Positions 3,453 through 34,784 of a stretch of 64,000 nucleotides of DNA are shown in pieces; position 1 is the first letter of the stretch, and the number at the start of each line of letters is the position of its first letter. A program made the position numbers and the translations under genes. The notes beneath the pieces are model-generated. The model ran no database searches. It had not been told where the DNA came from and saw only the letters and a program-made list of their open reading frames with translations. The DNA lies in assembly GCA_049273855.1 (NCBI GenBank), contig JBASRN010000270.1, positions 8,320-72,319 on the forward strand, given 5' to 3'. Origin of the DNA: Blastocatellia bacterium. Its GTDB lineage: Bacteria; Acidobacteriota; Blastocatellia; UBA7656.

Positions 3453-3466
3453 GCTCTTTATGGTCG

Positions 3467-4084: not shown

Positions 4085-4089
4085 ATGGA

Positions 4090-4201: not shown

Positions 4202-4205
4202 CTCC

Positions 4206-5992: not shown

Positions 5993-6043
5993 TTCATCCT
6001 ATCCCCCCGAATTGTACCACCGCGAAACGCGATCCAGGATTAG

Positions 6044-7567
6044 TCAACCGGTGCACTGGTCCAGCAGCTCCCGCGCCCGGCCAAGCGTTTCCGAGAGAAC
6101 CTCGTCCTCGGTCATCGATTGCTCCACTACCACCACCCGCGTCTCCGCCTTTCCCGTTGGCCGCCATCGATCCAGCATTCGCCGTGAGCTGAACCCGGCA
6201 AACACATCGATGCAAGGCACGCCAAGCGCAGCCGCAATGTGTTGGCCTGCTGAATCGTAGCCAATGTAAAGGTCGCTCTCACCGATCAACGCCGCAAGCA
6301 AACCGATCCGCCCGCTCCATACAGCAAGCTCCGCTTCGATTCGATCCTCTCCCAGCAGCCGCGGCAAGCTCTCCTCGTCAAGCTCGATCATGCGGAGCCT
6401 ATCGTTCGAAGAACGTTTCGCAAACTCGAATACCGCTTCCGCACGCTTTGCTTCGCCCGCGCCCGCACCTTTGTCGAGGAAGACCGTTGCGCCGTCACGC
6501 AATAGGCTGCTGACGAGTTGTCGCTCGAAGCCGTCGCCCACTCGCTTCGACGGGTTGCCGCCGACGCCGAAGTTGATGGCGATGACCGGATGCCGCTCGC
6601 GTCTGATCCGCCCGGCGAGGGAGCGGGCCGTGTCGACGTCCGCCGGCGTAAGACTCACGACGGGGTAGGCCGGGAGCTTAGGGCCGAGCACCTCGTCGAG
6701 CCATGCCGAGGTCAGCTCCGACAGCGAGGCCATCGAGTCGTGGCGGTACTCACGGCTGGGAAAGAACAGATAATCAGCTCCATCAGCGCGCGCCTTGCCC
6801 GCGACGCCGGATGACAACGGCAGCAGCCCAAGCTGCGACAGCCGCGAATCCGGGTCGATGATCAAGGACCGCTCGACTCCTTCTGTCAGCTCGCGCACAC
6901 AATCGACAAGCGGAAGCCACGCGAGCAGCCTATCGAGCGCCGTTGCCGCACGCGGATAGTTGATCTCTTTGAACGCGAGCCGCCGGTCGCCGCCGAAAAG
7001 CTCCGAAGCTTTGCGTCCGCCGACCAACACGATCTCGGCTGATGGGAAAGTCGTCTTGAGCCTCTCGATGATCACGCTGGTTATGGCTACGTCCGCGCCA
7101 AGCGTCACCCGCGAGAGCACCATCACGCGGCCGGGCTGGAAGCGCTCAGGTCCACTCTGCTCGGTATGATCAACGCCAGACAGCCAGGGATGGCTGTGCT
7201 CCCACGAGGTGCGCAGGTCTTCCGCGCGAGCAAGCACGTCGGCTTCGGTTCGCAGACCAAACTCTCTCAGCTTTTCGTCGAGCGGCCGGCCCCTCTCTGT
7301 GTTGCGGCAAACTTGAATCAGTTGCGCGCAGGCTTGATTGCAAAGCGACACGGCGGCAGGTTCGAAGGAGTCGGCGAGAGTCTCGACCAGCGACCCGAAA
7401 AAACACTCAGAGGCTCGTTCTGCGACTTGCCTGTCTTCTGAGATGGCGAGCTTCGTGAGGCGTTCGACATGATTACGCGGGTAAGCACCGCCTGCTTGAA
7501 AGTGAGTCAGGATCTCCGAGACCAGTTGCTCGGGCTCGGCATCAGTCGAATGCGGCTCGCTGTTCAT
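6044..7567 (-). CDS. glycosyltransferase family 9 (heptosyltransferase-like) with about 150-aa N-terminal extension of unknown function
   Basis: GT9 hallmarks: RVTLGADVAITSVII...VLVGG at domain start and YIGYDSAGQHIAAALGVPCIDVFAG near the C-terminus. Confidence 0.65.
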   Translation of the reverse strand: MNSEPHSTDAEPEQLVSEILTHFQAGGAYPRNHVERLTKLAISEDRQVAERASECFFGSLVETLADSFEPAAVSLCNQACAQLIQVCRNTERGRPLDEKLREFGLRTEADVLARAEDLRTSWEHSHPWLSGVDHTEQSGPERFQPGRVMVLSRVTLGADVAITSVIIERLKTTFPSAEIVLVGGRKASELFGGDRRLAFKEINYPRAATALDRLLAWLPLVDCVRELTEGVERSLIIDPDSRLSQLGLLPLSSGVAGKARADGADYLFFPSREYRHDSMASLSELTSAWLDEVLGPKLPAYPVVSLTPADVDTARSLAGRIRRERHPVIAINFGVGGNPSKRVGDGFERQLVSSLLRDGATVFLDKGAGAGEAKRAEAVFEFAKRSSNDRLRMIELDEESLPRLLGEDRIEAELAVWSGRIGLLAALIGESDLYIGYDSAGQHIAAALGVPCIDVFAGFSSRRMLDRWRPTGKAETRVVVVEQSMTEDEVLSETLGRARELLDQCTG

Positions 7568-10036: not shown

Positions 10037-11256
10037 CGAGAATCAGCCACCTTTTCCGATGTCCGATCGTTAAAGGTCAGAGCGAAGAACAATGTGATGA
10101 CTGCGGCGAATATGCACGGGATCAACCAGAACATTCGCCAATCCATGACTTCGTTGGTTTTCACAGCATCGCCCACCTTCCCGGAAACGATCGAGCCAAG
10201 CCCGATACCGACGCCATAGGTGATCAGCGCGATGAACCCCTGGGCACTGGCGCGAATCTCCCGCGGCGCTTTCTTGTCGACATAAATCTGCCCGGTGACG
10301 AAGAAAAAGTCATAGCAGATGCCGTGCAAAAGAAGGCCGCCGTAAATCATCCACGCCGCCGAGTCGAGGTTGCCGTACGCGAACAACGCATATCGCGCAG
10401 CCCATGCCAGCATCCCCACCAGCAGCATCTTTTTCACGCCCAGGCGAATAAAGAAAAACGGCATCAGAACCATGAAGACGACTTCCGACATCTGCCCAAT
10501 GCTCTGCTTGGCCGCCGCGTTCTCCATTTCCAAATAGTTGAGAAACGGATTCGTGAAATTGTAGTAGAAGGCCAACGGGATGGAGATTAGCAATGAACAG
10601 AGCACGAATACGAAGAACGACCTCTCCTTCAGCAACCTGATTGCTTTGAGGCCCAGCACTTCGCCGACACTGACCTTCTTGCCGACATTTTGCGGCGGCG
10701 TGTCCGGCAGCGTGAATGAATAGAGCCCCATCACAATGGAAGCGATCGCAGCCATCTTCATCGGAATTGCCGTCTCTTCGACCTGAGGATAAAACTTGCC
10801 CAGAATAAAAGAGATACTCAACCCGGCCGCTATCCAGCCGATTGTCCCCCAGACGCGTACCTTGGGGAACTGCGAGTCCGGGGTTTCCATTTGATGAAAT
10901 GAAATATTGTTGACCAGCGCCAGCGTCGGCATATAGCTCAGGTTGTAAAGCAACAGGCCGAAGATCAACCAGCCAACCGTTGCAACGTCTGCGGACAGGT
11001 AGAGGATGATGGCGCCGAGCAGATGAAGCGCACCCATCACTTTCTGCGAGGCGAAGAATCTGTCCGCGATCATGCCGATAAAGAAGGGGGAAATGATGGC
11101 GGCGATGTTGTTCATCAGGAACGCATAGCCGATTTGACTATTTGTGAAGCCGGGACCCTTCCCCAGGTACGTGCCAAGCGTCACAAACCACGCGCCCCAG
11201 ACAAAGAACTCGAGAAACATCATCACGCTCAGCCGAGTGTACGTCTTCGCATCCAT
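10033..11256 (-). CDS. MFS transporter, NupG/XapB nucleoside:H+ symporter family-like
   Basis: 12-TM protein with N-terminus (LSVMMFLEFFVWGAWFVTLGTYL...IAAIISPFFIGMIADRF) closely following NupG family topology and motifs. Confidence 0.7.
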   Translation of the reverse strand: MDAKTYTRLSVMMFLEFFVWGAWFVTLGTYLGKGPGFTNSQIGYAFLMNNIAAIISPFFIGMIADRFFASQKVMGALHLLGAIILYLSADVATVGWLIFGLLLYNLSYMPTLALVNNISFHQMETPDSQFPKVRVWGTIGWIAAGLSISFILGKFYPQVEETAIPMKMAAIASIVMGLYSFTLPDTPPQNVGKKVSVGEVLGLKAIRLLKERSFFVFVLCSLLISIPLAFYYNFTNPFLNYLEMENAAAKQSIGQMSEVVFMVLMPFFFIRLGVKKMLLVGMLAWAARYALFAYGNLDSAAWMIYGGLLLHGICYDFFFVTGQIYVDKKAPREIRASAQGFIALITYGVGIGLGSIVSGKVGDAVKTNEVMDWRMFWLIPCIFAAVITLFFALTFNDRTSEKVADSR

Positions 11257-11383
11257 TCAACGAGTCTCCACGTTCGTAGTACCGCCCTCAGCACGTTTCG
11301 TAGTACCGCCTTCAGTCAGGCGGAAGTTCGCGAGGCTGCAACAGTCCGTCATGAACTTCCGGCTGAAGGCCGTACTATGAACG

Positions 11384-11998
11384 TTACTGGATCTCTCTTA
11401 CTCGCACGCGGCGGAACGAGACGCGCGAGATCAGATCGTGGTTTTGCAAACCAACGAAGCCTTCGGTGGCGCGAGTGCCCTCGAACTCGTTTACCTTCTC
11501 GCCGTTCAGTTCGACAGTGTAGCGCTGACCCACGACTGTTATCTCAAAAAGATTCCACTGGCCTGCAGGCTTGGAAGCCACTCTGGTAGCTGGATGAAAA
11601 CTGTAGATCGAGCCCGTCTGAAACATCAGACCCTTTTCCGCGCAGTCGTCGATTTGAATCTCGTAGCCGTTGTTCACCGCGTACCATGGGTCGTCGCTTT
11701 TGTCGGGGAAGCGAACAAACACGCCCGAGTTGTTGCACTTGTGGTTGGCCTTCCACTCGACTTGCAGCGTGAAGTTGCGAAACTTTCGCCCTTCGTACCA
11801 CAGCATTCCCATCCCGCCGTGAGTAACCAGCGCCCCGTCTTCGACGGTGAAGTTGCCTTTGCCGGCCATTCGCCAACCAGTCACGTCTTTGCCGTTGAAC
11901 AGATCGATCCACTTGCCGTCCTTCTTCCGCGGCACCGCGAGCGCAGCAAGCGAAAGGAATAGTATCAACCCGCCAGTTATCATTGTTCTTTCTCTCAA
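11384..11998 (-). CDS. DUF1080 (3-keto-disaccharide hydrolase-like, concanavalin-type fold) secreted protein
   Basis: Signal peptide and the IDLFNGKDVTGW...GYEIQIDD...GLQNH motif pattern characteristic of DUF1080 / PF06439. Confidence 0.8.
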   Translation of the reverse strand: MRERTMITGGLILFLSLAALAVPRKKDGKWIDLFNGKDVTGWRMAGKGNFTVEDGALVTHGGMGMLWYEGRKFRNFTLQVEWKANHKCNNSGVFVRFPDKSDDPWYAVNNGYEIQIDDCAEKGLMFQTGSIYSFHPATRVASKPAGQWNLFEITVVGQRYTVELNGEKVNEFEGTRATEGFVGLQNHDLISRVSFRRVRVREIQ

Positions 11999-12057
11999 TG
12001 TTGTTCCCAGCCTTTCAAGACAAGACGAGGTTCGAAATCAATCCGCAATCCGCAATC

Positions 12058-13758
12058 CTATAGGTTTCCCTTCTTGTGTTGATCCACAACGTACTCACAA
12101 GCCCGAACCGTCAGCGCCATCATCGTCAGCGTGGGATTCTGACACCCGATCGAAACAAAACAAGAGCCGTCGGTCACAAACAGGTTCTTCACGTCCCAAC
12201 TCTGATTGAACTTGTTGAGCACCGAGGTCTTGCGGTCGTTCCCCATTCGCGCGGTGCCGACCTCGTGAATGCACAGCCCCGGCGAGGCGAGAAACGGACT
12301 GCCGAAGTTGACCTGGAACTTCGCTTCGTGAGCCATCTCATTCAACGTTTCCAACATGTCCCGAGCCATGGCCTTCTCGTTGTCGCCGTGACTGCAGTCG
12401 ATGTGCGCTACGGGAATTCCCCACGCGTCTTTCATTTCCTTGTCGATCGTCACCCGGTTCTCTTTGCGCGGCAACATCTCGCCCCAGCCGCCAAGCCAGA
12501 ACGGCGCCGGATCGTTAGTTTCCCGCACTCTCTTCTTGTACTCCGAACCGAAGCCAGGGATCGACTTGAGCGTCGTCGGCAGCATCCCTCGCTGCACGCC
12601 ACCCTGCATGCCGTAGCCGCGAATGAAGTTGGGATGGCGGTCGTGGACGTTTCTAAACTTCGGTATATAGATGCCGTTCGCCCGCCCGTCGTCGAAGTTG
12701 TAGCGGTAATTAGCAACAGCCGGAACGACTCCCCCTATTGCAATCTGAAAGATGTGGTCCATCAGGTAACGACCCAGCACTCCCGATGAGTTTCCCAACC
12801 CGGCCGGATGCTGGCGAGTCGCGCTGTTCATCAACAGCCGTGTTGATTCAATCGTCGAAGCGCACAACATCACGACTTTGCCGAACACCTCGAAAGTGTT
12901 CTTTGTGACTTGATCTATGCAGGCGACGCCCCTGGCTTTGCCAGTTCTGGTGTCTACGATGACGTGACTCGCGACTGCGTTAGTGCGCAGCGTAAGCCTG
13001 CCAGTCTTAGCCGCAGCCGGAAGCGTCGAGCCGGGGCTGCTGAAGTACGACGAAGTCGTGCAGCCCCGATCGCAGTGACCGCACCAGTGACACGCGGCTC
13101 GCCCGTTGTGCCGCTGAGTCAGTATCGCCGCGCGGCCGATCATCACGCGGCGATCTTTCCACTTTCGCTCGACGCTTTTCTTTAACAGCCACTCGCCGCA
13201 TGTCATCTTCATCGCCGGTAAGAACTTTCCATCGGGGAGATTCGGAACGTTCTCGTACGAGCCGCTGACGCCGATGAACTCTTCGACCTTGTCGTAGTAC
13301 GGAGCAAGCTCGGTGTAACTGAGTGGCCAATCCTCGCCAAACCCGTCACGGCTCGCGGCCTTCAGCTCGCAGTCCGAAAGCCGATACGTTTGCCGTCCCC
13401 AGGTGATCGTGCGCCCGCCGACCTGGCGGCCGCGAATCCAGTCGAACTGTTTGCGATCGGGCGTGGTGTAGGGATTGTCGATGTCGTCTACAAAGAATTG
13501 ATGTCCGTACTCGTTACACGCGTAGCACTTCGACTGAACGGGCTGGCGCGCGCGAAAGACTTCGCGGTTGCCTAAAGTGCCGCGGTACTTAACTTCGTAG
13601 GGCCAGGTGTGCTCGTTGAAGTCTCTATCGGGATCGAGCTTGCGTCCGGCTTCGAGCACGATCACTCGCATGCCTTTTTCGGTTAGCTCCTTCGCGGCCC
13701 ATCCGCCGGTCGCGCCTGAACCGACCACGATTGCGTCGTAGATTTCTTCCTTAGGCAT
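12058..13758 (-). CDS. GMC family oxidoreductase (FAD-dependent, glycoside/sugar 3-dehydrogenase-like)
   Basis: N-terminal FAD fold [19 protein letters not shown]-terminal GMC motifs ([17 protein letters not shown]). Paralog of 16467-18176. Confidence 0.85.
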
Positions 13759-13781
13759 TGATGACCTCTCGAGCAGCGCCG

Positions 13782-14276
13782 CTATCGGTTAGCATCGATC
13801 TCATGTATCTGCTGCGTAATCGTCTCGTGATTGACTCCCAACTGCTCGAACAGTGTTACTGAATCGCTCCGGGCATTGGCGAAGATTCCAATGAGAACAT
13901 CCTCGGCTTCAATTCTTCCACGTCCATTCTGGCGAGCGTGTTCGAGCGCAGCCGCTAGCGTCGCGCGGAATTCTTCTGAGACCTTTAAGGCGTCGCCCGC
14001 ATGACTGCCCTGACCTAACCCCTCGGATATTGCATGCAGGGCAACTTCCGGATCGCGGTTCAGCTTATGCAGCAGGCTTTCAAACTTTAGCGATTCGATT
14101 TTGGCATACGCGATTAACGCATGTTCTGGAACCAGTTGCGAGTGCTTCAACGCTCTTGCTTGTCTGTAAGCCCCGCGTACAATCCTTTGACCACTTTCAG
14201 CAACTTTGCCTGTGTAAACTTCAAAGCTAATATCGCTTGGGCGTAACCCAAAGTGAGCAAGTAGGGTCTTCATCAA
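13782..14276 (-). CDS. Clp N-terminal (Clp_N repeat)-like domain protein
   Basis: Two helical repeats resembling Clp_N (EHALIAYAK..., [10 protein letters not shown]...). Sits between the GMC and TIM-barrel genes; function unknown. Confidence 0.4.
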
Positions 14277-23664: not shown

Positions 23665-24396
23665 CTACGACGGCAACGATTCGTTGAACTTGTATCCAAC
23701 CCCCCACACGGTTAAGACATACTTTGGATCCTTCGGGTTCTCTTCGATTTTTGTTCTCAGCCTGTTCACGTGCGGATCGATATTACGCTTGTAACCCTCG
23801 TAAGCGGTGTCCCAGATGGCAGTCAGGATATCCTGCCGGGAATAAACATGTCCCGGATTGGACGCAAGAAATTTGAGGATGCTGAACTCGATAGGAGTAA
23901 GGGTGACTTCCCTGCCACCGAGTTTGACCCTATGCCGCTTCAAGTCAACCTCCATCTCTCCTCGTGTTATTATGCTTTCGACTGCCTTGTGAGAATCACC
24001 GGATGCGCGCCGCCACAACGCCTGAACTCTCATCTCCAGTTCTATCGGGTTGAAGGGCTTGCCAAGGTAGTCATCAACACCTTTCGAAAAGCCATCAACC
24101 TTGTCTTCAATGCTGATTCTCTCAGTCAGCATGATGACCGGCGTCGTCACGCCCTTCTCCCTCAGTAAGTGACAAACCTTGAAGCCGTCCATGCCGGGCA
24201 TCACCACATCGAGAACTATAACCCCCGGGTTTTCCGAGAGGGCCATCTCCAAACCCTGAACCCCGTTCGCGGCCTCGATAACAGCATATCCCTTGTCGCT
24301 CAAGCAGTCTTTGACCATCGAACGTATCGAGTCACTGTCGTCCACTACCAGAACCAACTTATTCGACATCTGATTTGCGTAGGAACCGTCACTCAA
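23665..24396 (-). CDS. OmpR-family two-component response regulator
   Basis: Receiver domain (LVVDDSDSIR...VLDVVMPGMDG...K) plus a winged-helix trans_reg_C domain (VWGVGYKF). Confidence 0.85.
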   Translation of the reverse strand: MSDGSYANQMSNKLVLVVDDSDSIRSMVKDCLSDKGYAVIEAANGVQGLEMALSENPGVIVLDVVMPGMDGFKVCHLLREKGVTTPVIMLTERISIEDKVDGFSKGVDDYLGKPFNPIELEMRVQALWRRASGDSHKAVESIITRGEMEVDLKRHRVKLGGREVTLTPIEFSILKFLASNPGHVYSRQDILTAIWDTAYEGYKRNIDPHVNRLRTKIEENPKDPKYVLTVWGVGYKFNESLPS

Positions 24397-24408
24397 GTCA
24401 TTTGCCCA

Positions 24409-25527
24409 TTAAAGAAGGCGCATCGGCATGACTACATACCGGTAGCTATCGGCCTCTTCTCCAGCGGGCCTCATCAGCGCTGGGCTTTGCTCGTCCTTTA
24501 GTTCAAATACGGTTTCTTCGGTCGCTACCACTCCCAAGAAATCGAGTAGATACTGGGCGTTGAAACCGATCGTCAGATCGTCGCCGCTATAATCCACGGC
24601 GATCGCTTCTCTGGACTCGCCCACATCGGCGCTCTGTGAGCTGATGTTCAATCTCCCCTGACCAAGCTCGTATTTGATTCCATGACTCCTCTCGTCGGCC
24701 ATCAGAGCAGCGCGCCTGACTGCTTGCGCAATTTTTTCTGTATTGAGCGTCACTAGTTTATCATTGCCCTTTGGCAGCACGAGATCGTAATTTGGAAACT
24801 GTCCTGCCAGCATCCGCGATGTGAGGTGACGCTGTCCTTGTTTGAAATACAAGTGGTTTGCGTCCGTGGAGAACTCAATATCCTCCTCTGCGGCCGCGGT
24901 CAACTTCAATATCTCGGTCAGCGCCTTTTTTGGAATGATTACTCTCAACTGCTCCTTTTCACTAACAGGTACCTCTTCGATTTCGCAGTCGGCCAGCGCA
25001 AGCCTATGCCCGTCGGTTGCGACCATTCGAAGCCTGCCGTCCGAGAAGGTCAGGAGCGCCCCGCTTAGGGCGTAGCGCGACTCTTCTTGAGTGATCGCGT
25101 ACACGGTCCTGCTGATGAGATTGTGAAGCGCAGTTGACGGAATCGACATTTCAGCTTTACCGGGCTTTGGCGTCGACGGGAAGTGCTCCTTGGCTTGCCC
25201 CGCCAGTCTGAACTCTGAGGATGCACATGTAATCTTAGTCCAGTCGTTAGCTTCCTTGACGAAATCTATATCGGCATCCGGCAAGTACCGCACAAGATCA
25301 AACAGTCGCCTTGCCTGCAGCACTACCGAACCCGCTTCGGAAACGTCCGCTGCGCACTCCGTTTGAAACGACACGTCCAGATCCGTTGCCACAAGTGAGA
25401 CCAGTGATTCATTTACGGTCTCTATTAGGAGGCTGGACAGCACTGGTATTGTTGTCTTCTTCTCGACAATTCCCTGGAGTAGGTTCAACTCCTTTAGGAG
25501 TGATGCTCGGTTCAGGCGGAATCTCAT
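24409..25527 (-). CDS. dnaN: DNA polymerase III beta sliding clamp
   Basis: 372 aa, MRFRLNRASLLKELNLLQGIVEKK... canonical DnaN; immediately downstream of dnaA. Confidence 0.95.
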   Translation of the reverse strand: MRFRLNRASLLKELNLLQGIVEKKTTIPVLSSLLIETVNESLVSLVATDLDVSFQTECAADVSEAGSVVLQARRLFDLVRYLPDADIDFVKEANDWTKITCASSEFRLAGQAKEHFPSTPKPGKAEMSIPSTALHNLISRTVYAITQEESRYALSGALLTFSDGRLRMVATDGHRLALADCEIEEVPVSEKEQLRVIIPKKALTEILKLTAAAEEDIEFSTDANHLYFKQGQRHLTSRMLAGQFPNYDLVLPKGNDKLVTLNTEKIAQAVRRAALMADERSHGIKYELGQGRLNISSQSADVGESREAIAVDYSGDDLTIGFNAQYLLDFLGVVATEETVFELKDEQSPALMRPAGEEADSYRYVVMPMRLL

Positions 25528-25788
25528 TTTGGGTCAACCCTTTCATTTCTGTCGCAATCAGGGTGCTACTATACCAATAACTTTCATAATAAAACTAGTA
25601 GTAGTAGTAGGCTGTGCATAAGTGGAAAACCTGATCAAAAGTACTGATTTCTCTATTAACTACCTCGACTGGACTCGGAAGATAAATGGAGAAAAAGGTA
25701 AGTCCGACGAATAAGTTCAGAACAAATCATATAAAGAGCCTAATTCCACAACGACATCAAAAGGAGATCTGTGGAATACGTCGCTAAC
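25528..25788. promoter_or_regulatory. AT-rich dnaA-dnaN intergenic region, candidate oriC / DUE with DnaA-box-like 9-mers
   Basis: About 35% GC versus about 60% flanking. Contains TGTGGAATA (25770-25778), AGTGGAAAA (25621-25629), the TTCCACAAC complement (25745-25753) and a (TAG)5 microsatellite at about 25588-25602. Confidence 0.45.
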
Positions 25789-27171
25789 TCATTTCATGCT
25801 AGTAATTAGATTGTCTATAACGCTGTGGAAAACTGAGTCTTTATCTCGTAAGTTTGAGATCTTATTAATGCTGTGCAACACGGTGCTGTGATGTTTTCCT
25901 CCAAACTCCCTTCCTATCTCTGGCAAGCTGGCCGATGTAAGCGTCTTACAGAGATACATTGCGACTTGGCGCGGAAATGCTATTACTCTTGTGTTGCTCT
26001 TTGACTTGAGATCGGCAGCCTTCAAACTGTAATGTCCAGCAACAATTCTCTGGATCGATTCGATCGAAGGTGCGTCGGATTCAGACTCGATGATGTTTCT
26101 GAGAATGTCCTTAGCCAAATCGATTCCTATCGGGAGCGCTTTAAGTGATGCATATGCAAGAAGCCTTACCAGCGAGCCTTCCAGTTCTCTGATGTTCGAT
26201 TTAATTTTGCTCGCGATGAATATCGCGACATCATCCGGGAGATCGATTCTCTCCAGTTCGGCCTTTCGCTTTAGGATTGCGACCTTCGTTTCGAGATCAG
26301 GCGGCTGAATATCGGCAATCAGACCCCACTCGAATCTCGAATGCAATCGCTCCTCGAGCGTCGGGATTTCTCGCGGCGGACAGTCGCTTGATATGATTAT
26401 TTGCTTTTGAGAGTCGTAGAGCGCGTTAAAGGTGTGAAAAAACTCCTCCTGAGTACGTTCCTTTCCAGCCAGGAACTGAATATCATCGATAAGCAGAACG
26501 TCGATGTTTCGATATCTGTCCCGAAACTTGATCGTCTGGTCGTATCTGATCGCATTTATCAGCTCGTTCATAAATCTCTCGGATGAGATATATGTGAGGC
26601 GCAGCGACTTATTCCTGGTCTTGATTGCATACCCAATGGCGTGCATCAAATGAGTCTTTCCCAGACCCACCCCGCCATAGATATAGAAAGGGTTATAGGT
26701 TTTGGCGGGCATGTCCACCACCGCCAGGGAAGCGGCGTGTGCGAACTGGTTACAGGAGCCCACAACAAAAGTCTCGAACTTGTATTTTGGGTTGAGCGGC
26801 AAATCTGACTGTTCGGGGACCACCGGCCTGGGCGGATCCAAGGCTTGTGAAGATCGCGGCGAGCTAAGCGGCCTATCCAGACCCGGTACAGAATCTGTGT
26901 TCGACGTTTGCCTCCTATTGTCCCCCAGAAGGAACTCGACCTTATAGCCAACTAAGCCCAGCTCCTCAAGAGACTCTTCGATTACGTCGAAATAGTTGGT
27001 GCGGATCCAATCGCGAAAGATTTCGTTCGGAACCGTTAAATAAAGGGTAGAAGAGTCCTTGGCCGCGCGCAAAATCGGTCTAAACCACGTATCGAAGCTC
27101 TCGTGGTTTAATCGCTTTGAAATCGCTCTTAGGACAGAAGAGAGGAGGTCTATCTGGACACCCGTCGTCAT
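25789..27171 (-). CDS. dnaA: chromosomal replication initiator protein DnaA
   Basis: AAA+ Walker [16 protein letters not shown], DnaA signature and C-terminal DNA-binding domain. Start taken at MTTGVQ (27171); the listed ORF extends to 27210. Confidence 0.95.
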
Positions 27172-27432
27172 TTCACGCCTCCCTATTAGGCACAGAGCAT
27201 TCGCCAACAAAAGGACGAGGTTAGCCGAGCACCGAATGGGCGACCGCGCTCCTCGATAAAGCAGACGACAACAAAGGACCGGCTGTTGAAACTCGCGAAC
27301 AGTATCACAAGTACCGAACTGTTTTCAATCCCGTCGCCTTGCGCTATATGAATAACTGCACCTTAATTAACCCAATAACAGGGTTATACCTGTTTTAATC
27401 AAAATCTGGCCCAGATCACCGCGCAATGTAGA

Positions 27433-27448
27433 CGTTTCACGTGAAACA
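27433..27448. promoter_or_regulatory. parS centromere-like site (perfect palindrome cGTTTCACGTGAAACa)
   Basis: Exact match to the tGTTNCACGTGAAACa ParB-binding consensus, located in the dnaA-parA divergent spacer. Confidence 0.7.
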
Positions 27449-27540
27449 GTGTTTGCCGTTATGGTAAAAGCTCGGGGTCTAGAGTTCAGAGATAGTTGCG
27501 ACTGTTGGTCTGGGTTCGGTTTGTGGTATGTTACCAAGCC

Positions 27541-28323
27541 ATGCCCAGAATAATAGCCATCGCCAACCAGAAGGGTGGCGTTGGCAAAACGACTTCCGCC
27601 ATAAACCTGGCAGCCAGCCTGGCAATTGCCGACCGACGGGTCTTGTTGGTTGACGCGGACCCACAGGGCAACAGCACCAGCGGACTGGGGTTACGGGGCA
27701 CATTTCAGAATAGCCTTTATCACTCGTTGGTCTCGAACCACTCGCTTGATTCAATCGTTTTGGCGAGTGAGTTATCGGGGCTATCGGTCATTCCCTCCGA
27801 GAAGATACTGGTGGCGGCCGAAATCGAACTTGTTGGAGTTGAAGAGAGGGAATTCAAGCTCAAAAAAGCACTGGAGCCGGTCGCCGCGAATTATGATTAT
27901 GTGCTGATCGACTGCCCGCCGAGCCTGGGACTCCTAACTTTGAACGCATTGGCTGCGGCCCACTCGGTGCTGGTTCCGATTCAATGCGAGTACTTTGCTC
28001 TTGAGGGAGTCTCGGAGCTTTGGGACACTCTGGTCAAAGTGCGTAGAAGTTTGAACCCAGCCTTGGCCATCGAGGGTTTTCTGCTTACGATGTTTGACGA
28101 AAGAACGAACCTCTCAAACCAGGTCGTATCCGATTTGAGGGGGTTTCTAGGGTCTCAAGTTTTTTCCACCGTGATACCAAGGAACGTTCGACTTGCCGAG
28201 GCACCCAGCCACGGCAAGCCGATTGTGCTGTACGATGTCCGATCTAAGGGTGCCGAAAGTTACCTTCGATTGGCACGGGAGGTGATCGACAATGTCAAGA
28301 CGGGCATTGGGCAGGGGGCTTGA
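27541..28323 (+). CDS. parA: chromosome partitioning ATPase ParA (Soj)
   Basis: Deviant Walker A IAIANQKGGVGKTTSAINLA; start at ATG 27541. Confidence 0.9.
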   Translation: MPRIIAIANQKGGVGKTTSAINLAASLAIADRRVLLVDADPQGNSTSGLGLRGTFQNSLYHSLVSNHSLDSIVLASELSGLSVIPSEKILVAAEIELVGVEEREFKLKKALEPVAANYDYVLIDCPPSLGLLTLNALAAAHSVLVPIQCEYFALEGVSELWDTLVKVRRSLNPALAIEGFLLTMFDERTNLSNQVVSDLRGFLGSQVFSTVIPRNVRLAEAPSHGKPIVLYDVRSKGAESYLRLAREVIDNVKTGIGQGA

Positions 28324-29155
28324 TGCGCTCTTCCCCCAGGCTAATCCTATCAACAACGATCTGATTGATTTGGATGTTGAGAGCATCGATCCAGGGGTCG
28401 AGCAACCTCGACGCGACTTCAACGAGGAGAAACTGACGGAACTGGCCCGATCGATAGAAGCGAACGGTGTCATTCAGCCAATCGTGGTGCGCCGAGTCGG
28501 CGAGCGATTCCAAATAATCGCCGGCGAGCGCCGCTGGCGAGCTGCGAAGAAGGCCGCTCTGAAGCGGATCCCAAGTCTGATTCGCAATGTTCCGGAGGAG
28601 AATATCCTCGAGTTGTCCCTCATTGAGAACATACAGCGCCAGGAGCTAAACCCGATAGAAGAGGCGAATGCGTATCGCAAGCTTCAGGAACAACTAGGCA
28701 TTACTCAGGAGGCAGTGGCGCAGCGAGTTGGAAAAGACCGTTCGTCGGTGACGAACTCTTTGAGACTTCTAAAGCTGCCCGAGGACGTCCAACGACTAGT
28801 CGAGGACGCCAGGCTTTCAATGGGGCACGCTCGAGCGTTACTCCCTATCGAATCCGCCGACAGGCAAAGAGACTTGGCCGAAGAGATTGTGACCAAACTG
28901 CTTTCGGTGCGACAGACTGAGAAGTTGGTTAAGAATGAACTTGCCACAAATACGCCGCGTCAAACAAAGCCCGAGCCAAAAAACGATGGTGAAACTGCCA
29001 ACATACTCGCGGCCGAGGCAAAGCTGAGCAGGAGGCTTGGAGCGCCAGTAAGGATCAGGTCCCTGAAAGCCGGGGGCGTGGTTGAAATTAGGTTCTCGTC
29101 GAGAGACGAACTTTCACGGATCTTCGATCTACTAATACGGAGGCCGCTGGAGTGA
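28292..29155 (+). CDS. parB: chromosome partitioning protein ParB (Spo0J)
   Basis: MSRRALGRGLDALF N-terminus, ParB box GERRWRAA, HTH; overlaps parA by 32 bp. Confidence 0.9.
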   Translation: MSRRALGRGLDALFPQANPINNDLIDLDVESIDPGVEQPRRDFNEEKLTELARSIEANGVIQPIVVRRVGERFQIIAGERRWRAAKKAALKRIPSLIRNVPEENILELSLIENIQRQELNPIEEANAYRKLQEQLGITQEAVAQRVGKDRSSVTNSLRLLKLPEDVQRLVEDARLSMGHARALLPIESADRQRDLAEEIVTKLLSVRQTEKLVKNELATNTPRQTKPEPKNDGETANILAAEAKLSRRLGAPVRIRSLKAGGVVEIRFSSRDELSRIFDLLIRRPLE

Positions 29156-29541
29156 AAAACTCTCTCAAACTGAGCCACTAACCCCAAAGTCCCTTTGCTA
29201 CAACAAATGAGATTTTCTGCTCTCCTCGACTCATCGTTCTAATTACAACGATGACCGTCCTCCGCTGTTGTGATGACTTCCGAAACCTCTTCGTGAAAGT
29301 GATATCAACTACGCGAGTACTTTCGTGGATAGGACCGCCAATATTCCAGCAGCAGTGGTGCAAACAAGTTGATGTGGTCTGTTAGCACTTGTTTGACGTG
29401 AGCAGCGCCGAGTGGCTTCCAATGCAGTCCAGTCAATCCAGGTAGCGACGCGTTGCGAAAGCCGTTGGTAGTGTCCTAATTCTGTGTTGCTAGCCCTGAG
29501 ATACTTGTTTCGCCTTGCATCGGTCGTGCTAACATTGGTTC

Positions 29542-29805
29542 ATGCCAAAGCGCCCAAGCAAGAGCGACCCGAGCCTTTTCGCAAAGAACGTTCTGGATCA
29601 CATCATCAGCAAGTACGATCCAGAGGCAGTTGAATCGGTCTTTGTAGCTGATAGTGCTAGCGAGAAGCCCGCCAAGAACCCCGCTGCCGTCGCCCTGGGC
29701 AAGCTCGGAGGCTCCAAGGGCGGTCGCGCTAGGGCCGCTAGTCTTTCACCTCGCAAGCGCAAGCAGATCGCCAAGAAAGCAGCTAAGGCGCGATGGAGCA
29801 AATGA
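29542..29805 (+). CDS. small lysine/arginine-rich protein (putative nucleic-acid binding), low-GC islet
   Basis: 87 aa; C-terminal NPAAVALGKLGGSKGGRARAASLSPRKRKQIAKKAAKARW. Overlaps the next ORF start by 13 bp (ATGGAGCAAATGATGA). Confidence 0.4.
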   Translation: MPKRPSKSDPSLFAKNVLDHIISKYDPEAVESVFVADSASEKPAKNPAAVALGKLGGSKGGRARAASLSPRKRKQIAKKAAKARWSK

Positions 29806-30152
29806 TGAATATAGAGAACCGAACCGTCATAACGGGCTTCGCTCAGCAGACCCATACAGTCGAATATAGCCCAGCGCAACTGATGTTAGGATTCAGTCAA
29901 CTCTCAGGACGCATTACAGGCACTGATCGCGAAGAAAGTGTGAGAAGTACCGTTATACTTCTTGCGAGCAGTATAACCGCTTGGAGCATTGATAATACAC
30001 CACTGCTAGTCACGGAAGCAGAAATAGGCAAATTACCGGACAACCTTATCGGCTTCATTTTTAGTGAGATCAGCCAAGATACGGCACGCTTCATGGAGCA
30101 GTTCGCTGCCAACTTTAACATACTCCTCAAAGGCGATCCCGACGGCGGCTGA
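29793..30152 (+). CDS. hypothetical protein (translationally coupled to upstream small basic protein)
   Basis: 119 aa with no recognisable domain; lower GC than the genome average. Confidence 0.3.
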   Translation: MEQMMNIENRTVITGFAQQTHTVEYSPAQLMLGFSQLSGRITGTDREESVRSTVILLASSITAWSIDNTPLLVTEAEIGKLPDNLIGFIFSEISQDTARFMEQFAANFNILLKGDPDGG

Positions 30153-30189
30153 TGGCCCTGGCCCCGGTTCTGACGATTGCTTAATCACT

Positions 30190-31305
30190 TGAAACCTCAT
30201 TCTTACCCCCTCCTTTTTTTCTTACGTAGCAACGCAATTTTGTTGACAATGCTTAGGCGTCTATGCTAATCTCGTGTTGCTCGGAAAGGGGCAACGAAAT
30301 GAACTGCCAAGATTGCAAAGCGCCGTCAAAGAAATTCGGGAAAGACCGCAAGGGAAATCAGCGTTTCCGCTGCCTGTCTTGCGGAAAGACGTTTAGCGAG
30401 CCGCGCCCGCGTCTCTTGGGGAACATGACGCTAGACGAAAACAAAGCGATTGATTGCCTCAGGCTCTTGGTCGAGGGCAATTCGATTCGGAGCATAGAGA
30501 GGTTTACCGGCGTTCATCGCAATACGATTATGAGCCTTCTTGAGCTAGCGGGCGAACGATGCGAAAAGCTGATGGAAGATCGCATCAAGCACCTATCTGT
30601 TAATGACGTTCAATGCGATGAAGTTTGGGGCTACGTTGGAATGAAAGAGCGAACCAAGGCTCGCAAGGGCGTTGATGACGATAACCTTGGCGATGCTTGG
30701 ACGTTCACCGCGATTGAACGCAATACCAAAATGATTCTTGCCTTTCACCTTGGCCGAAGAACGGAAGCCGATACGATTGCTTTCACTGAGAAGTTGGCCC
30801 ACGCAACTAAGGGCAGTTTTCAAATCACAACAGACGGATTCAGACCGTATCAACACGCAGTTGTTATGAGTCTCGGAGCGCAGCGCGTAGACTTCGCGCA
30901 ACTTGTTAAGCTCTACTCCAGCACACCGGAAGGGCCGCAGACTCGCTACTCCCCGGCTGAGTGTACTGGAGCCCGTAAGGTTCCGATCTACGGTAGTCCT
31001 GATATGGACAAGGTTTCCACTTCGCATATCGAACGCCACAATCTTTCGATCAGAATGAGTACTCGAAGAATGACAAGACTCACTAATGCGTTCTCAAAGT
31101 CTTGGAAGAATCATCAAGCGGCTCTTGCAGTTTATCTTGCCTACTACAATTTTTGTCGCGTACATCAAACGCTAAGAATCACTCCAGCAATGGAGGCAAA
31201 CATTACAGATCACGTCTGGACAATGCGCGAGCTACTAGGCTAAAGCGCGCTTGCCTTTGTTGCCAATATGATATAATAACAGAACCTCTCATTTAGGGGG
31301 TTTAG
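30190..31305 (+). mobile_element. IS1-family insertion sequence (boundaries approximate)
   Basis: Single-ORF IS1-type transposase within the low-GC islet. Flanking AACCTCATT / AACCTCTCATT and ACCCCCT / AGGGGGT motifs are noted, but terminal inverted repeats could not be resolved confidently. Confidence 0.4.
30299..31243 (+). CDS. IS1 family transposase (fused InsAB-like single ORF)
   Basis: N-terminal zinc finger CQDCKAPS...CLSCGK, then DEVWGYVG, TTDGFRPY and C-terminal YNFCRVHQTLRITPAME motifs typical of IS1 transposases. ATG 30299 with a GGAAAGGGG RBS. Confidence 0.8.
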   Translation: MNCQDCKAPSKKFGKDRKGNQRFRCLSCGKTFSEPRPRLLGNMTLDENKAIDCLRLLVEGNSIRSIERFTGVHRNTIMSLLELAGERCEKLMEDRIKHLSVNDVQCDEVWGYVGMKERTKARKGVDDDNLGDAWTFTAIERNTKMILAFHLGRRTEADTIAFTEKLAHATKGSFQITTDGFRPYQHAVVMSLGAQRVDFAQLVKLYSSTPEGPQTRYSPAECTGARKVPIYGSPDMDKVSTSHIERHNLSIRMSTRRMTRLTNAFSKSWKNHQAALAVYLAYYNFCRVHQTLRITPAMEANITDHVWTMRELLG

Positions 31306-31308
31306 GCC

Positions 31309-31545
31309 ATGTTTAAAGACGAACTAGAATACTTTGTTGCTCATCAAGAAGAACTAGTCGAAAAGTATCAAGGTAAAGTATTGGTTATAAAAGGAAACGA
31401 GCTATTAGGCGTCTATGATGACGCTCTCGAAGCGTATCTTGAAGCGCAAAAACGGTATGAGCTTGGGACGTTTATGATCCAAGCTTGTGAGCCAGGACCA
31501 CAAGCGTATAGCGTTACCATTGGTTCGATACAATCGTTTACCTAA
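31309..31545 (+). CDS. small protein, DUF5678-like (putative partner of downstream aspartic protease)
   Basis: 78 aa; ELVEKYQGKVLVIKGNELLGVYDDALEAYLEAQKRY pattern. Stop TAA is directly followed by the ATG of the next gene. Confidence 0.4.
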   Translation: MFKDELEYFVAHQEELVEKYQGKVLVIKGNELLGVYDDALEAYLEAQKRYELGTFMIQACEPGPQAYSVTIGSIQSFT

Positions 31546-32151
31546 ATGACTAATCCGCAGATTCGTCATATTCTTGCTTTCACTACCACGTTCCCCGGTC
31601 TTACAGATCGCATTATCACCGAAGTAAAGCTAACCCAAGCGTTTGATCCAAACACGCCACCAAATCCCATACCGGCGCTCATAGCAACAGCTGCATTATG
31701 GGATACAGGGGCAACTAGGAGCGTCATCACCCCGAGTATTGCGGCAGATCTGAAACTTGTTCCAACGGGAACCGTGATGATGAATTCTGCGCATGGTTCC
31801 AAACAATGCAACACGTATCTAGTTAACCTTTACTTGCCCAACGGCGCTGCGATTTATGGTGTTCCCGTTAGCGAATGCACGGACACTGCTCACTTTGGAG
31901 CGATCATCGGAATGGACATTATTGCGATGGGCGACTTCTCGATTACGAATGTAAATCGCAAGACGATAGTTTCCTTCCGCATCCCGTCTATTGCCACCGT
32001 GGACTACGTCGCCGACGTCAAGAAACTGAAGGCAGAACAAGAAAGGCTGGAGAACGCAAAGCCGATTCGCAATAAGGGTCCGCGTGTCGGGCGCAATGAC
32101 CCATGTCCCTGCGGATCGGGGAAGAAGTACAAGAAATGCTGCGGCGGCTAG
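31546..32151 (+). CDS. retropepsin-like (clan AA) aspartic protease with C-terminal SEC-C zinc-binding motif
   Basis: [10 protein letters not shown] catalytic D-T-G-A, downstream IIGMDII flap/dimer motif, and a C-terminal [18 protein letters not shown] that exactly fits the SEC-C motif. Confidence 0.65.
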
Positions 32152-32293
32152 CAACACAGAATTAGGACACTACCAAGCCGTTGGCAAACATCTCTGCGCT
32201 GCTGTATAAATGACTGGCTCTAGAACTTTCGTCATTCTCCAGCGTAGATTGGCTTGAGTTCCGACACTAACCCCGTTTACCAGGAGACAAAAA

Positions 32294-33049
32294 ATGCGCG
32301 CACGAATGATGATGACTCTGCTGTCAATTGCGCTGCTGGTGACCTTCTCTTCGGTCGCATCAGCGCGAGCGTTTAGTAATGAATCTAATCAAGCCTCGCC
32401 TACGGACAACCTTTCTGGCAAGTACGAGGGAGTAGCGAAGAGCGATCAGCTTGGAGACATCCCTCTTACGGTTGAGATCAAGAATGACAACGGCAAGTTG
32501 TCGGGCAAGATCGACACGCCGCAGGGTCCGGCGGCGATCACAAGCGGCACTTACGCGGACGGAAAGGTCACGATGAAGTTTGACGCCGGTGGAAACGAAG
32601 GCACCGTCACCGCAACAGTCGCCGGCGACAAGATCACCGGCAAGTGGGAGCTTGCTGGACAGGGCGGACCGCTCGAGCTGAAGCGAGCAAGTATGGTCGC
32701 AGCCTCGCCTTCGGCGAGCGCCGCGAGCGGAGGCTCAGCCGCGGTCCCAGCGGCAGGCGACGTGGTATCCGGAGACTGGGACGCGTCAGCCGACGCGCAA
32801 GGCACGGCCATACCGTTCACTCTGAAACTCAAGCTGGACGGCGACAAGGTGACCGGCACTTCCGACTCGGCCCAGGGTTCGGCGCCGCTAAGCAAGGGGA
32901 CTTATGCCGCTGGCAAACTGAGCTTCACGCTTGACACCCCGAACGGCGCTATCGGAATGACCGGGATGATCAAAGACGGCAAGATTGTCGGCGAGTTCGA
33001 CTTTGCCGGTCAGATGACTGGGAAGTGGGAAGCGACCAAGAAGAAGTAG
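32294..33049 (+). CDS. secreted protein with two internal ~100-aa repeats (lipocalin-like/DUF repeat)
   Basis: Signal peptide; repeated G-K-x-S/T-G-K-I-D-T-P-Q-G ... GTYADGK ... G-D-K-I/V-T-G-K/T-W/S modules. Confidence 0.5.
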   Translation: MRARMMMTLLSIALLVTFSSVASARAFSNESNQASPTDNLSGKYEGVAKSDQLGDIPLTVEIKNDNGKLSGKIDTPQGPAAITSGTYADGKVTMKFDAGGNEGTVTATVAGDKITGKWELAGQGGPLELKRASMVAASPSASAASGGSAAVPAAGDVVSGDWDASADAQGTAIPFTLKLKLDGDKVTGTSDSAQGSAPLSKGTYAAGKLSFTLDTPNGAIGMTGMIKDGKIVGEFDFAGQMTGKWEATKKK

Positions 33050-33095
33050 GCGAGGGGTTGATGTTTGAGTGATGCGTGAGCGCGGTTCTCACGCA

Positions 33096-34784
33096 TCACC
33101 CATCACCTCTGAAGACCACTTCGCCGCCGATCACTGTTATCACGCAGCGAGTCTTCAGTATCTCTTTTTCGGCAATTCTCATAATGTCCGCGGACAAGAT
33201 CGTCAGGTCGGCGAGCTTCCCCACCTCTATCGAGCCCTTCACGTTCTCTTCAAACGCAGCGTAAGCCGCCCAGATCGTAAACATTTTCAAAGCCTGTTCG
33301 CGTGAGGCCGCTTGCTCCGGGTGCCAGCCCTCACCGCTGAATCCGTCCAGACCTTTTCGCGCGACTGCGGCGTAGAACTCGATCATAGGCTCGCCTCGCT
33401 CCACCGGCGCGTCCGAGCCACCCGCGATGATCGACCCCGACTTGATGAAGCTCTGCCACGCATATGCTCCTTCCAGCCGCTTGATTCCAAGCCTGCTTGG
33501 AGCAAAGAACAAATCGCCGATCGCGTGGGAAGGCTGCATCGACGGAATCACGCCGAGCTTCGCGAAGCGCGGAATGTCGACCGGGTTGACGATCTGCGCG
33601 TGCTCGACCCGCCACCGAGGCTCGCGAATCTTTCGTTGATCCGGCGGCACTATGTTGAAAGCCTTCTCATACAAATCGAGAATCACTCTATTCGCGCGGT
33701 CCCCGATCGCGTGAGTCTCGAGTTGTATGCCACGTTTGAGAGCGTCGATAAACATCGGCAGCAGCTCTTCTTCTTTGCGCGTTAGAAAGCCGGCGGTATC
33801 GTAGTCGGAATACTTCTCGAGCAGCGCTGCTCCCTTTGAGCCAAGGGCGCCGTCAAACACCACTTTGATCGTGCGAAGCGTGAAACGGCCGTCAAACTCG
33901 CCCGAGCTCGCGCCGTCGGCCAACAACTTTGCCGAAGCCGGGCTCGGACCGTGCACCGCCTTGTAGATCCGGAGCTTGATCTTTCCTTCACCGTATAGCT
34001 TCCTTATAGACGTGACATCACCATAGCTTCCGCCGGCGTCTTGAATCTGGCACCAGCCAAGCTCGATGCTTCGCTTCACCCCAAGTAGTATCGCCTCCTC
34101 ATCGCTGCGATTGGCGTTGGGAACATATCTCTCAATCAGTCCCTGCGCGGCGTCCAGCAGCATTCCGTTAGGCTCGCCGGTCTGTTTGTCCTTCATTATC
34201 TCGCCGCCGAACGGGCTCGGAGTGCTCTTGTCCACGGATGCCACCTTGAGCGCCGCGCTGTTGACGACCAGGCCGTGGCCGTCCGCGCGACCAAGCGCGA
34301 CGGGGTTATTTGGCGAAATCTTGTCAAGATCCCAGCGCGTCGGGAAGAAAGGCGGCTTCCAGTGAGTCTCGATCCATCCACGCCCTGTTACCCACTCGCC
34401 AGGCTTCGCGCGATCGACTCGCTCTCTTACCTTTGCGAGAAACTCTTCGAGGCTCGCGATGCCTTCGAGGTTGAGCGTGATTTCCCGGGCGCCAACTCCG
34501 GACAAGTGATAATGCGAGTCAGTCAAGCCGGGCACCACCGTGCCGCCTTTAAGATCGACCACGCGAGTGTTCTTACCCTGGTAAGGCTTCGCCTGTTTGT
34601 TCGATCCCACGAAGATTATCTTGCGACCTTTAACAGCAATCGCTTCGGCGCGAGGCTGACGTTCGTTGACCGTATAGACGTTGCCGTTTATGAAGACCGT
34701 ATCGGCTTGCTCGGCAGGTCGCGGATTGGCTCCAAGACTGACGTTGATCAGCGAGAGAGCAACAAGCAGTGTGGCAATTCTCAT
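33096..34784 (-). CDS. amidohydrolase-family metal-dependent hydrolase, secreted
   Basis: Signal peptide; GLTDSHYHL metal-binding motif and ...HAIGD... / ...GSDAPV... of amidohydrolase 3 family. Confidence 0.85.
   Translation of the reverse strand: MRIATLLVALSLINVSLGANPRPAEQADTVFINGNVYTVNERQPRAEAIAVKGRKIIFVGSNKQAKPYQGKNTRVVDLKGGTVVPGLTDSHYHLSGVGAREITLNLEGIASLEEFLAKVRERVDRAKPGEWVTGRGWIETHWKPPFFPTRWDLDKISPNNPVALGRADGHGLVVNSAALKVASVDKSTPSPFGGEIMKDKQTGEPNGMLLDAAQGLIERYVPNANRSDEEAILLGVKRSIELGWCQIQDAGGSYGDVTSIRKLYGEGKIKLRIYKAVHGPSPASAKLLADGASSGEFDGRFTLRTIKVVFDGALGSKGAALLEKYSDYDTAGFLTRKEEELLPMFIDALKRGIQLETHAIGDRANRVILDLYEKAFNIVPPDQRKIREPRWRVEHAQIVNPVDIPRFAKLGVIPSMQPSHAIGDLFFAPSRLGIKRLEGAYAWQSFIKSGSIIAGGSDAPVERGEPMIEFYAAVARKGLDGFSGEGWHPEQAASREQALKMFTIWAAYAAFEENVKGSIEVGKLADLTILSADIMRIAEKEILKTRCVITVIGGEVVFRGDG

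Follow-up and report, generated by a model that had tools for sequence, protein, structure and literature searches.

An IS1-family insertion sequence with passenger genes downstream of parB in a Blastocatellia bacterium

A stretch of reduced GC content immediately downstream of parB, in an origin-proximal position of a Blastocatellia genome, raises the question of what kind of unit is lodged there, where it begins and ends, and what it carries. In the DNA analysed here (the window, that is, the whole stretch of 64,000 nt taken from contig JBASRN010000270.1), the original prediction placed a 3.1-kb islet at 29160–32290, between parB and the gene for a 251-amino-acid (aa) protein, p251, that starts at 32294, and proposed a 10-bp direct repeat as its duplicated attachment or target sequence. 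We conclude with high confidence (a probability of about 0.9) that the segment 29467–32174, 2708 bp in length, is a single transposable element, namely, an IS1-family insertion sequence (IS) carrying passenger genes, or transporter IS (tIS), given that its ends, the target duplication, the transposase family, the architecture shared with relatives and the gene adjacency in relatives were each observed directly. The prediction of foreign mobile DNA inserted between parB and the gene at 32294 was thus correct, parB adjoining the homologue of that gene in four relatives, and so was the predicted gene content: an IS1-family transposase gene, a retropepsin/SEC-C gene and two overlapping small open reading frames (ORFs), 29542–29805 and 29793–30152, are all present.

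The event itself, the insertion of an IS into an intergenic spacer close to the origin, is ordinary and routine. The tIS category is already established, and the element adds another member to it, with cargo and a conserved partner gene, orf87, for which we found no description in the literature. For annotation, the gain is a defined mobile element, with ends known to the base, instead of a vague islet between 10-bp attachment repeats, and the sequence adjoining parB, as well as that upstream of the 251-aa gene, is thereby shown to be native.

Ends, transposase and gene content

A repeat search returned a perfect inverted repeat pairing 29465–29495 with 32146–32176; counting from the terminal GG, the unit spans 29467–32174. 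The resulting 29-bp repeat, GGTAGTGTCCTAATTCTGTGTTGCTAGCC, has just two copies in the 64 kb and none in shuffled sequences. Members of the IS1 family, as catalogued in ISfinder, have GGnnnTG ends and target duplications of 8–9 bp. Both ends of the element read GGTAGTG, and AAGCCGTT, 8 bp long, abuts it on either side; the duplication is likewise 8 bp in six related elements. Inverted repeats together with a target-site duplication are the signature of transposition. Between the left and right inverted repeats (IRL and IRR) lie five genes, the transposase gene and four passengers, orf87, orf119, orf78 and orf201 (Table 1).

The transposase is encoded by one continuous ORF of 314–326 aa. Because homologues align from the Met at 30299, this is the likely true start; the 314-aa version had no record in an exact-protein look-up. 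The protein scores 104.6 bits (cutoff 100) against the NCBIfam IS1 equivalog transpos_IS1 (NF033558), also matches the IS1/IS1595 zinc domain NF050000, and is recognized by Pfam DDE_Tnp_IS1 (PF03400; 8.8e-11). Its best matches on plasmids, 40–44% identical, are genes annotated 'IS1 family transposase'. For direct comparison, we read Escherichia coli IS1A from NC_000913 (19796–20563). The N-terminus of the transposase is 28% identical to InsA, with its zinc finger and helix-turn-helix (HTH), and the C-terminus is 26% identical to InsB, including the DE.WGYVG, TDG and IERHNLxxR motifs, so that the InsA-like zinc finger/HTH part and the InsB-like DDE domain of IS1 are both present in a single protein. 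Nine aligned homologues share, without exception, the zinc cysteines C6, C25 and C28 and the residues D107, D179 and E245. Homology to InsAB', the DDE domain, the zinc finger and the HTH all place the element in the IS1 family.

Further resemblance to IS1 is seen in the ends, GGTGATG and GGTAATG in IS1A compared with GGTAGTG here, and in the 8-bp duplication, which fits the 8–9 bp of IS1. The differences are substantial, however. IS1 is 768 bp long and produces its transposase through an insA/insB −1 frameshift, whereas the element in the window has one transposase ORF and is 2708 bp long with four passenger genes; in a blastp alignment, its transposase has about 40 additional residues between the second D and the E. 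The element therefore falls outside the classical IS1 subgroup, which has two overlapping frameshifted ORFs, a length of 0.7–1.2 kb and no passengers.

Single-ORF members of the IS1 family, up to several kb in length, are listed in ISfinder. The element resembles the single-ORF, ISMhu11-type IS1 elements and the IS1595-family tISs in combining a one-ORF IS1-like transposase, inverted repeats, a short duplication and passengers; it differs in its specific cargo and the orf87 partner, for which we found no published description. A full-text literature search for ISMhu11 yielded no paper. In passages of PMC3129680 and PMC9330008 that deal with tISs, these are characterized by passenger genes unrelated to transposition lying within the inverted repeats, and the IS1 and IS1595 tIS category is traced to Siguier et al. 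2009 in such passages of PMC3129680, PMC9330008 and PMC7986276. The element in the window has passenger genes of this kind, located inside its ends and moving along with it, as follows from the recurrence of orf78, orf201 and IRR at another locus and from the presence of other cargo between like ends in relatives.

Among the alternatives, the one that fares best postulates a composite, in which a shorter IS, running from an internal site at about 30255 to the IRR end at 32174, sits beside, or later captured, an unrelated orf87/orf119 segment, such that the 2708-bp unit is not ancestral. A partial copy of the inner inverted repeat just upstream of the transposase gene (CTAATCTCGTGTTGCT, 13/16 matching; Table 1) might be a vestigial left end of such an IS, and cargo is clearly exchangeable among relatives. 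The internal site lacks the GGTAGTG terminus, however, whereas the outer repeats match perfectly and are flanked by the duplication. Moreover, the order IRL, orf87-like gene, transposase gene recurs in three related elements (L004, L005 and L095) with transposases 56–82% identical, and orf87 therefore belonged to the element already before the divergence of those lineages. Taken together, these points make the composite scenario improbable. In L095 and L004, the transposase gene is preceded at an equal distance by a comparable match (..GTGTTGCT; shuffle p 0.00–0.02), and no such repeat-like site was found in four more distant elements. In the framework of a single tIS, the internal site is a candidate transposase-binding site or autoregulatory operator, the vestigial left end being the alternative.

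Table 1. Positions of features in the window and characteristics of related elements
Feature	Position or length	Strand	Remarks
Left CACTAACCCC, native spacer	29176–29185	+	21 nt past parB stop; 282 bp outside IRL; partly similar sequence in L019
Left target-site duplication AAGCCGTT	29459–29466		identical to 32175–32182; abuts inverted repeat
IRL, left terminal inverted repeat GGTAGTGTCCTAATTCTGTGTTGCTAGCC	29467–29495	+	29/29 complementary to 32146–32174; starts GGTnnTG
orf87, small basic helical protein	29542–29805	+	first gene after IRL; C-terminal motif KGGxARAxxLSxxxRxxIAKKAAxARW
orf119, ORFan, variable slot	29793–30152	+	overlaps orf87 by 13 nt
Internal partial repeat CTAATCTCGTGTTGCT	30266–30281	+	13/16 match to inner inverted repeat; ~18 nt upstream of likely transposase start
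Single-ORF IS1-family DDE transposase	30299–31243	+	longest ORF from 30263; assigned by NCBIfam, Pfam and IS1A alignment
Extended −10-like sequence TGATATAAT	31269–31277	+	upstream of orf78; putative promoter
orf78, DUF5678-like small protein	31309–31545	+	first gene of cargo pair
orf201, retropepsin-like aspartic protease (DTGA motif) with C-terminal SEC-C zinc motif	31546–32151	+	stop codon inside IRR
IRR, right terminal inverted repeat	32146–32174	−	perfect 29-bp complement of IRL
Right target-site duplication AAGCCGTT	32175–32182		8 bp
Conserved leader/promoter region of 251-aa gene	32202–32293	+	~90 nt, conserved in L018–L021; includes right CACTAACCCC
Related element L004, Nitrospira	3093 bp		duplication GGAAGAAG
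Related element L005, Gemmatales	3127 bp		duplication TAACTTTC
Related element L007, Acidobacteriota	2524–6900, 4377 bp		duplication CGGGGTGG
Related element L008, Planctomycetaceae	3145 bp		duplication GGGGATCC
Related element L095/L096, metagenome	3261 bp		duplication AAAAAGAA; transposase 82% identical
Related element L010, Gemmataceae	2490 bp		no duplication
Related element L115 (IMGVR_UViG_3300042731_003053), viral contig	10897–13795, 2899 bp		duplication CTGAATGG; no transposase

The insertion site and sequence composition

We examined the site of insertion by comparison with 80 loci returned by a metagenome scan with ParB. None of the five genes of the element was found in any of the 80 parB loci. 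In four of these (L018–L021), with ParB 60–66% identical, parB is followed after ~200–450 bp by a homologue of p251 (65–72%), with no match to the five element genes within the sequenced loci, and in the two of the four with sufficiently long contigs (L019 and L021), an amidohydrolase gene comes next, as in the window. Without the element and without one of the two duplication copies, the spacer in the window would measure 422 bp, within the range of the relatives. The insertion lies 111 nt before the p251 start and just ahead of a conserved leader, in which the relatives have ACACTAATACCC or ACGCTAATACCC (ACGCCAATACCC in L018) where the window has ACACTAACCCC.

These comparisons bear directly on the 3.1-kb islet at 29160–32290, for which CACTAACCCC would be the attachment or target sequence, duplicated when the islet was inserted or was integrated by site-specific recombination. 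The 10-mer does occur exactly twice in the window, at 29176–29185 and 32265–32274, which for this specific word exceeds expectation (2 observed compared with 0.04), and GC content between the copies is below that further downstream. As a pair picked post hoc, however, it is unremarkable: six longer exact direct repeats (11–13 nt) are present in the same 3.7 kb, where, by our estimate, about 6 chance 10-mer pairs are expected. The right copy is native, because it belongs to the leader that is conserved in the four relatives without any match to element genes; to the left copy, L019 has a partly corresponding sequence. The actual ends are not CACTAACCCC but the perfect inverted repeats with their 8-bp duplication, which lie 282 bp inward of the left copy and 83 bp inward of the right one, so that the predicted borders take in native intergenic DNA, ~290 bp of it before the element and ~110 bp after it. 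No tyrosine or serine recombinase or integrase domain was detected in any ORF with the Pfam and NCBIfam profiles, and no tRNA gene was found within 27000–34000, that is, the recombinase, attachment repeats and tRNA of an integrase-type genomic island are missing. An islet bounded by CACTAACCCC is accordingly very unlikely, and an integrase/tRNA island was rejected outright.

The composition of the region had been part of the case for the islet, and here the prediction held only in outline. GC content is indeed lower than in most of the window, the mean of which is about 57–58%, but the proposed level of 42–48% throughout was not found: the interval 29160–32290 has 49.4% overall, falling to 41–43% only around 31000–31600. 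The contrast with a GC-rich parA and parB (about 62%) also proved wrong, the measured values being 53.7% for parA and 54.6% for parB. Statistically, the 2708 bp of the element (GC 0.494) rank among the lowest 4.3% of windows of the same length (mean 0.570, sd 0.030), yet the adjacent dnaN–dnaA region, where the lowest such window begins at 25204, is just as low. Across 32 long ORFs, GC content at third codon positions (GC3; mean 0.694, sd 0.053) is lowest in the transposase gene (0.54) and also low in dnaA (0.575), parB (0.606), dnaN (0.608) and parA (0.622). The four genes dnaN, dnaA, parA and parB (24400–29155 in the window) have GC of 0.49–0.55, all under the window mean; this origin-proximal housekeeping block is compositionally atypical in its own right, and the GC dip of the element is real yet modest within a low-GC origin region. 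Although these four genes are below the window mean in both GC and GC3, the idea that ordinary compositional variation near the origin accounts for the dip, with genes that are resident and not recently acquired, can practically be dismissed, and pure compositional drift was rejected, in view of the inverted repeats and target duplication, the absence of the five genes from the 80 parB loci, the parB–p251 adjacency in relatives, and the occurrence of the same cargo with IRR in a different genomic context.

Several observations weigh against the tIS reading or parts of it. The 29-bp repeat delimits only one element copy (two repeat copies) in the 64-kb window, and exact-protein look-ups of the transposase, ParB and p251 returned only short Logan contigs, with no second copy and no conspecific empty site among them. 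A 26-mer representing the reconstructed empty site (GTTGCGAAAGCCGTTGGCAAACATCT) was absent from JGI metagenomes in an exact search, and thus the empty site is supported only by synteny in relatives with 60–66% identical ParB. In the closest ParB relatives (L015–L017, 74–78%), parB is followed not by p251 but by a giant ORF of >1500 aa that runs off the contig end, and the parB neighbourhood is therefore not fixed in the lineage. With respect to cargo function, PADLOC recognized only the SEC-C tail of orf201, so that any assignment draws on gene arrangement, and literature searches on DUF5678, on retropepsin combined with SEC-C, and on aspartyl protease together with SEC-C and toxin-antitoxin yielded no relevant paper.

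Among the Logan contigs, one from an independent sequencing run, SRR28062668 (L001), is 100% identical to 29633–32175 of the window and ends one base past IRR, and another from the same run (L014) begins at about 32198, as judged from its gene coordinates. This suggests more than one context for the right end of the element in that sample.

Related elements and exchange of cargo

Relatives were gathered by a transposase scan, limited to one genome per species, and from contigs encoding close homologues of orf87. Six related elements (L004, L005, L007, L008, L095 and L115) have like ends and an 8-bp duplication (Table 1), and their cargo is mostly different. L004 and L005 carry an HTH plus ImmA/IrrE-like protein and a protein of 170–175 aa for which we have no assignment, L095 a trypsin-like protease and an HTH/Cox-like protein, and L008 a 257-aa protein, likewise unassigned; L010, which lacks a duplication, carries a P63C-domain protein. 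In L007, a DUF5678-like and retropepsin/SEC-C pair lies downstream of the transposase gene, as in the window. This element also has nested inverted-repeat pairs, an outer one (GGTAGTGTCC...) accompanied by CGGGGTGG and an inner one (GGTAGCGGTGC..., 2565–2590 and 6757–6782) with no duplication, and may represent one IS1-like element within the ends of another.

The viral contig L115, in which IRL is identical to that of the window over 24/24 nt, encodes DUF1508, HTH-Peptidase_M78 (392 aa) and DUF4411/PIN (158 aa) proteins between its ends. The unit has ends, a duplication and cargo while lacking a transposase, in the manner of a mobile insertion cassette (MIC), and is a non-autonomous derivative, resembling the IS231–MIC231 case as cited in a passage of PMC3129680. 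The element in the window differs in having what appears to be an intact transposase gene and hence is counted as autonomous.

Counterparts of the cargo itself come from three contigs (L107–L109), the loci of an orf201 homologue of 70% identity, which encode an orf78-like protein of ~78% identity and an orf201-like protein of 68% identity and have IRR overlapping the stop codon of the latter. Beyond IRR, their DNA differs from the window, with a glycosyltransferase gene and pdxJ; the same tIS lineage, with the same cargo, therefore occupies a different site in a different genome.

At the nucleotide level, the homology of the window element to L095 stops at the transposase stop codon, and three independent assemblies break just upstream of orf78. 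In two further contigs (L117, at about 2162–3081, and L118), a segment with orf78-like and orf201-like genes and IRR, lacking IRL and transposase, begins at the equivalent of the transposase stop. Because these three kinds of boundary coincide, the position that directly follows the transposase stop acts like a junction for cassettes. The one-ended segment of L117 and L118 is located downstream of pnp and has an 8-bp direct repeat, AAACTTTT, on both flanks.

A predicted protease is part of the cargo in five elements: L004 (2737–3924), L005 (1832–3109), L095 (3729–4679), L115 (11936–13114) and the window (31546–32151). Three classes are involved, namely, an HTH-ImmA/IrrE-type metalloprotease, a trypsin-like serine protease and a retropepsin-like aspartic protease, mostly with a small partner gene; the M78 domain in L005 scores below the Pfam threshold, and the protease of L004 is assigned by its HExxH motif only.

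These elements might form an undescribed, cross-phylum clade of IS1-derived cargo shuttles, extending over Acidobacteriota, Nitrospira, Planctomycetota and the viral contig. Such a clade would have a fixed backbone of IRL, orf87-like gene, transposase gene and IRR with two exchange slots, one hypervariable and filled by ORFans after orf87, the other for cassettes, starting directly behind the transposase stop and preferring protease-bearing two-gene conflict modules, and would act as a dedicated spreader of defence and addiction cassettes, with non-autonomous MIC derivatives on phages. Observed examples are a DUF5678 and retropepsin/SEC-C pair, HTH-ImmA/IrrE either by itself or accompanied by DUF4411, and a trypsin-like protease combined with an HTH protein. 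We regard this broader proposal, in both its parts, as possible but rather doubtful. The wider interest of the locus is modest and lies in the element family: like ends and 8-bp duplications in several phyla, a conserved small protein next to IRL, swappable protease-bearing cargo, and, on a viral contig, a derivative that lacks the transposase.

Passenger genes, proposed mechanism and flanking features

The first passenger, orf87, has >5400 homologues and no Pfam family. An orf87-like gene lies directly after IRL in L004, L005, L095, L097 and L098, and L007 and L010 contain one as well; homologues are found outside IS elements as well, adjoining Peptidase_M78 genes. The AlphaFold2 (AF2) model of orf87 consists of four helices (mean pLDDT 78) and had no Foldseek match in the PDB below E = 3.9; in PHROGs, orf87 matched only the N-terminus of a 338-residue profile of unknown function. 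The protein may be an accessory factor that binds DNA, or it may act jointly with the product of the variable ORF that follows. In the window, this ORF is orf119, for which searches of 5.8e9 proteins retrieved only itself and an exhaustive phmmer search of 1.84e9 representatives only itself and one weak match; its single-sequence AF2 model is unusable (pLDDT 37). The ORFs after the orf87-like genes of L095 (1836–2111, 91 aa), L097 (5287–5613, 108 aa) and L098 (5252–5563, 103 aa) show no significant pairwise similarity to orf119 or to one another, and the position after orf87 is thus a hypervariable slot.

The cargo pair is arranged compactly, with the orf78 stop and the orf201 start abutting (TAAATG at 31543–31548). 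The match of orf78 to Pfam DUF5678 is weak (E 0.0039, below the cutoff), and a comparison with PDB sequences found nothing. By contrast, orf201, with >7300 homologues, matches Asp_protease_2 at 28.5 bits (cutoff 24.3) and SEC-C at 1.6e-10; among PDB sequences, its tail matches only the C-terminal peptides of SecA and YchJ. All orf201 homologues examined (L007, L107–L114 and L117–L118) have a 77–78-aa ORF directly before them or overlapping their start, although the orf78-like calls are longer in L007 and in L107, where the call is cut by the contig end. The location of the orf201 stop within IRR is kept in L107–L109 and L117. When aligned with L108, L117 and L118, TGATATAAT shows no variation at its core positions; exactly this sequence is shared with L108 only. 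A promoter scan found no two-hexamer sigma-70 promoter in 29100–32400, and hence our promoter suggestions within the element are drawn solely from conserved −10-like blocks.

As expected of a two-gene module, orf78 and orf201 are small, co-directional and abutting, and they recur in varied, often mobile contexts, as IS cargo (L007, L107–L109 and L117) and, in L110–L114, in prophage-like surroundings with DNA methylases on either side. Neither has homology to a known toxin, antitoxin or defence family in Pfam, NCBIfam or PADLOC, where only a generic aspartic protease and the SEC-C tail were recognized. Judging from this arrangement, the most likely role of the pair is that of an addiction or defence-like two-gene module, a suggestion that we make tentatively. 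A parallel can be drawn to Tn3-family transposons with toxin-antitoxin pairs, as described in part of PMC9330008, in which a transposon backbone likewise carries a compact two-gene passenger module with its own promoter, putative in the present case, that could favour maintenance. The element in the window differs in its transposase family, in having no resolvase, and in that orf78 and orf201 show no similarity to known toxin or antitoxin families. As IS cargo, the retropepsin/SEC-C and DUF5678 pair provides a handle for testing the role of a group with >7000 homologues for which we found no literature.

By analogy with IS1, transposition could proceed as follows. The zinc finger/HTH part of the transposase would bind the inner part of the 29-bp terminal repeats and the DDE core would cut at the GG termini, whereupon the whole unit would be inserted with 8-bp staggered cuts, by copy-and-paste or via cointegrate formation. 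Staggered insertion into the parB–p251 intergenic spacer would have produced the AAGCCGTT duplication. Everything between the repeats would move jointly, that is, orf87, orf119, the transposase gene and the cargo pair with its own putative promoter. In classical IS1, the promoter is embedded in IRL; here, IRL is separated from the transposase gene by passengers, and the internal site at 30266–30281 might serve as an operator in place of such a promoter. The cargo pair, acting as an addiction or defence-like module, could favour retention of the element. The sequence comparisons point to movement of the whole unit, cargo included, in the lineage, and the present copy may still be active.

Several features flank the element. 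No terminator-like site was found on the + strand from orf201 to p251, so that read-through from the element into p251 is possible. The leader at 32202–32293 follows the pattern CTGTATAAAT...AGAACTTTCGTCATTCTGCCAGCGTAGATTGGCTTGAG...CAGGAGA, an unusually strong conservation for intergenic DNA at 65–72% protein identity, and could comprise a promoter and a structured 5' leader. On the other side, ~270 bp of spacer (29186–29458) do not align with relatives and overlap a minus-strand 61-aa ORF (29178–29363) without a family match; this is probably plain intergenic DNA but may be an older remnant. At gathering thresholds, Rfam gave no match in 24000–34000 or in L016 and L017. An rRNA operon after parB in L015–L017 was considered and rejected, given the giant ORF in that position and the lack of an Rfam match in L016 and L017. 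Finally, a parS-like palindrome, CGTTTCACGTGAAACA, lies in the dnaA–parA intergenic region at 27433–27448, with one mismatch to TGTTTCACGTGAAACA, and is the sole such site in the 64 kb.

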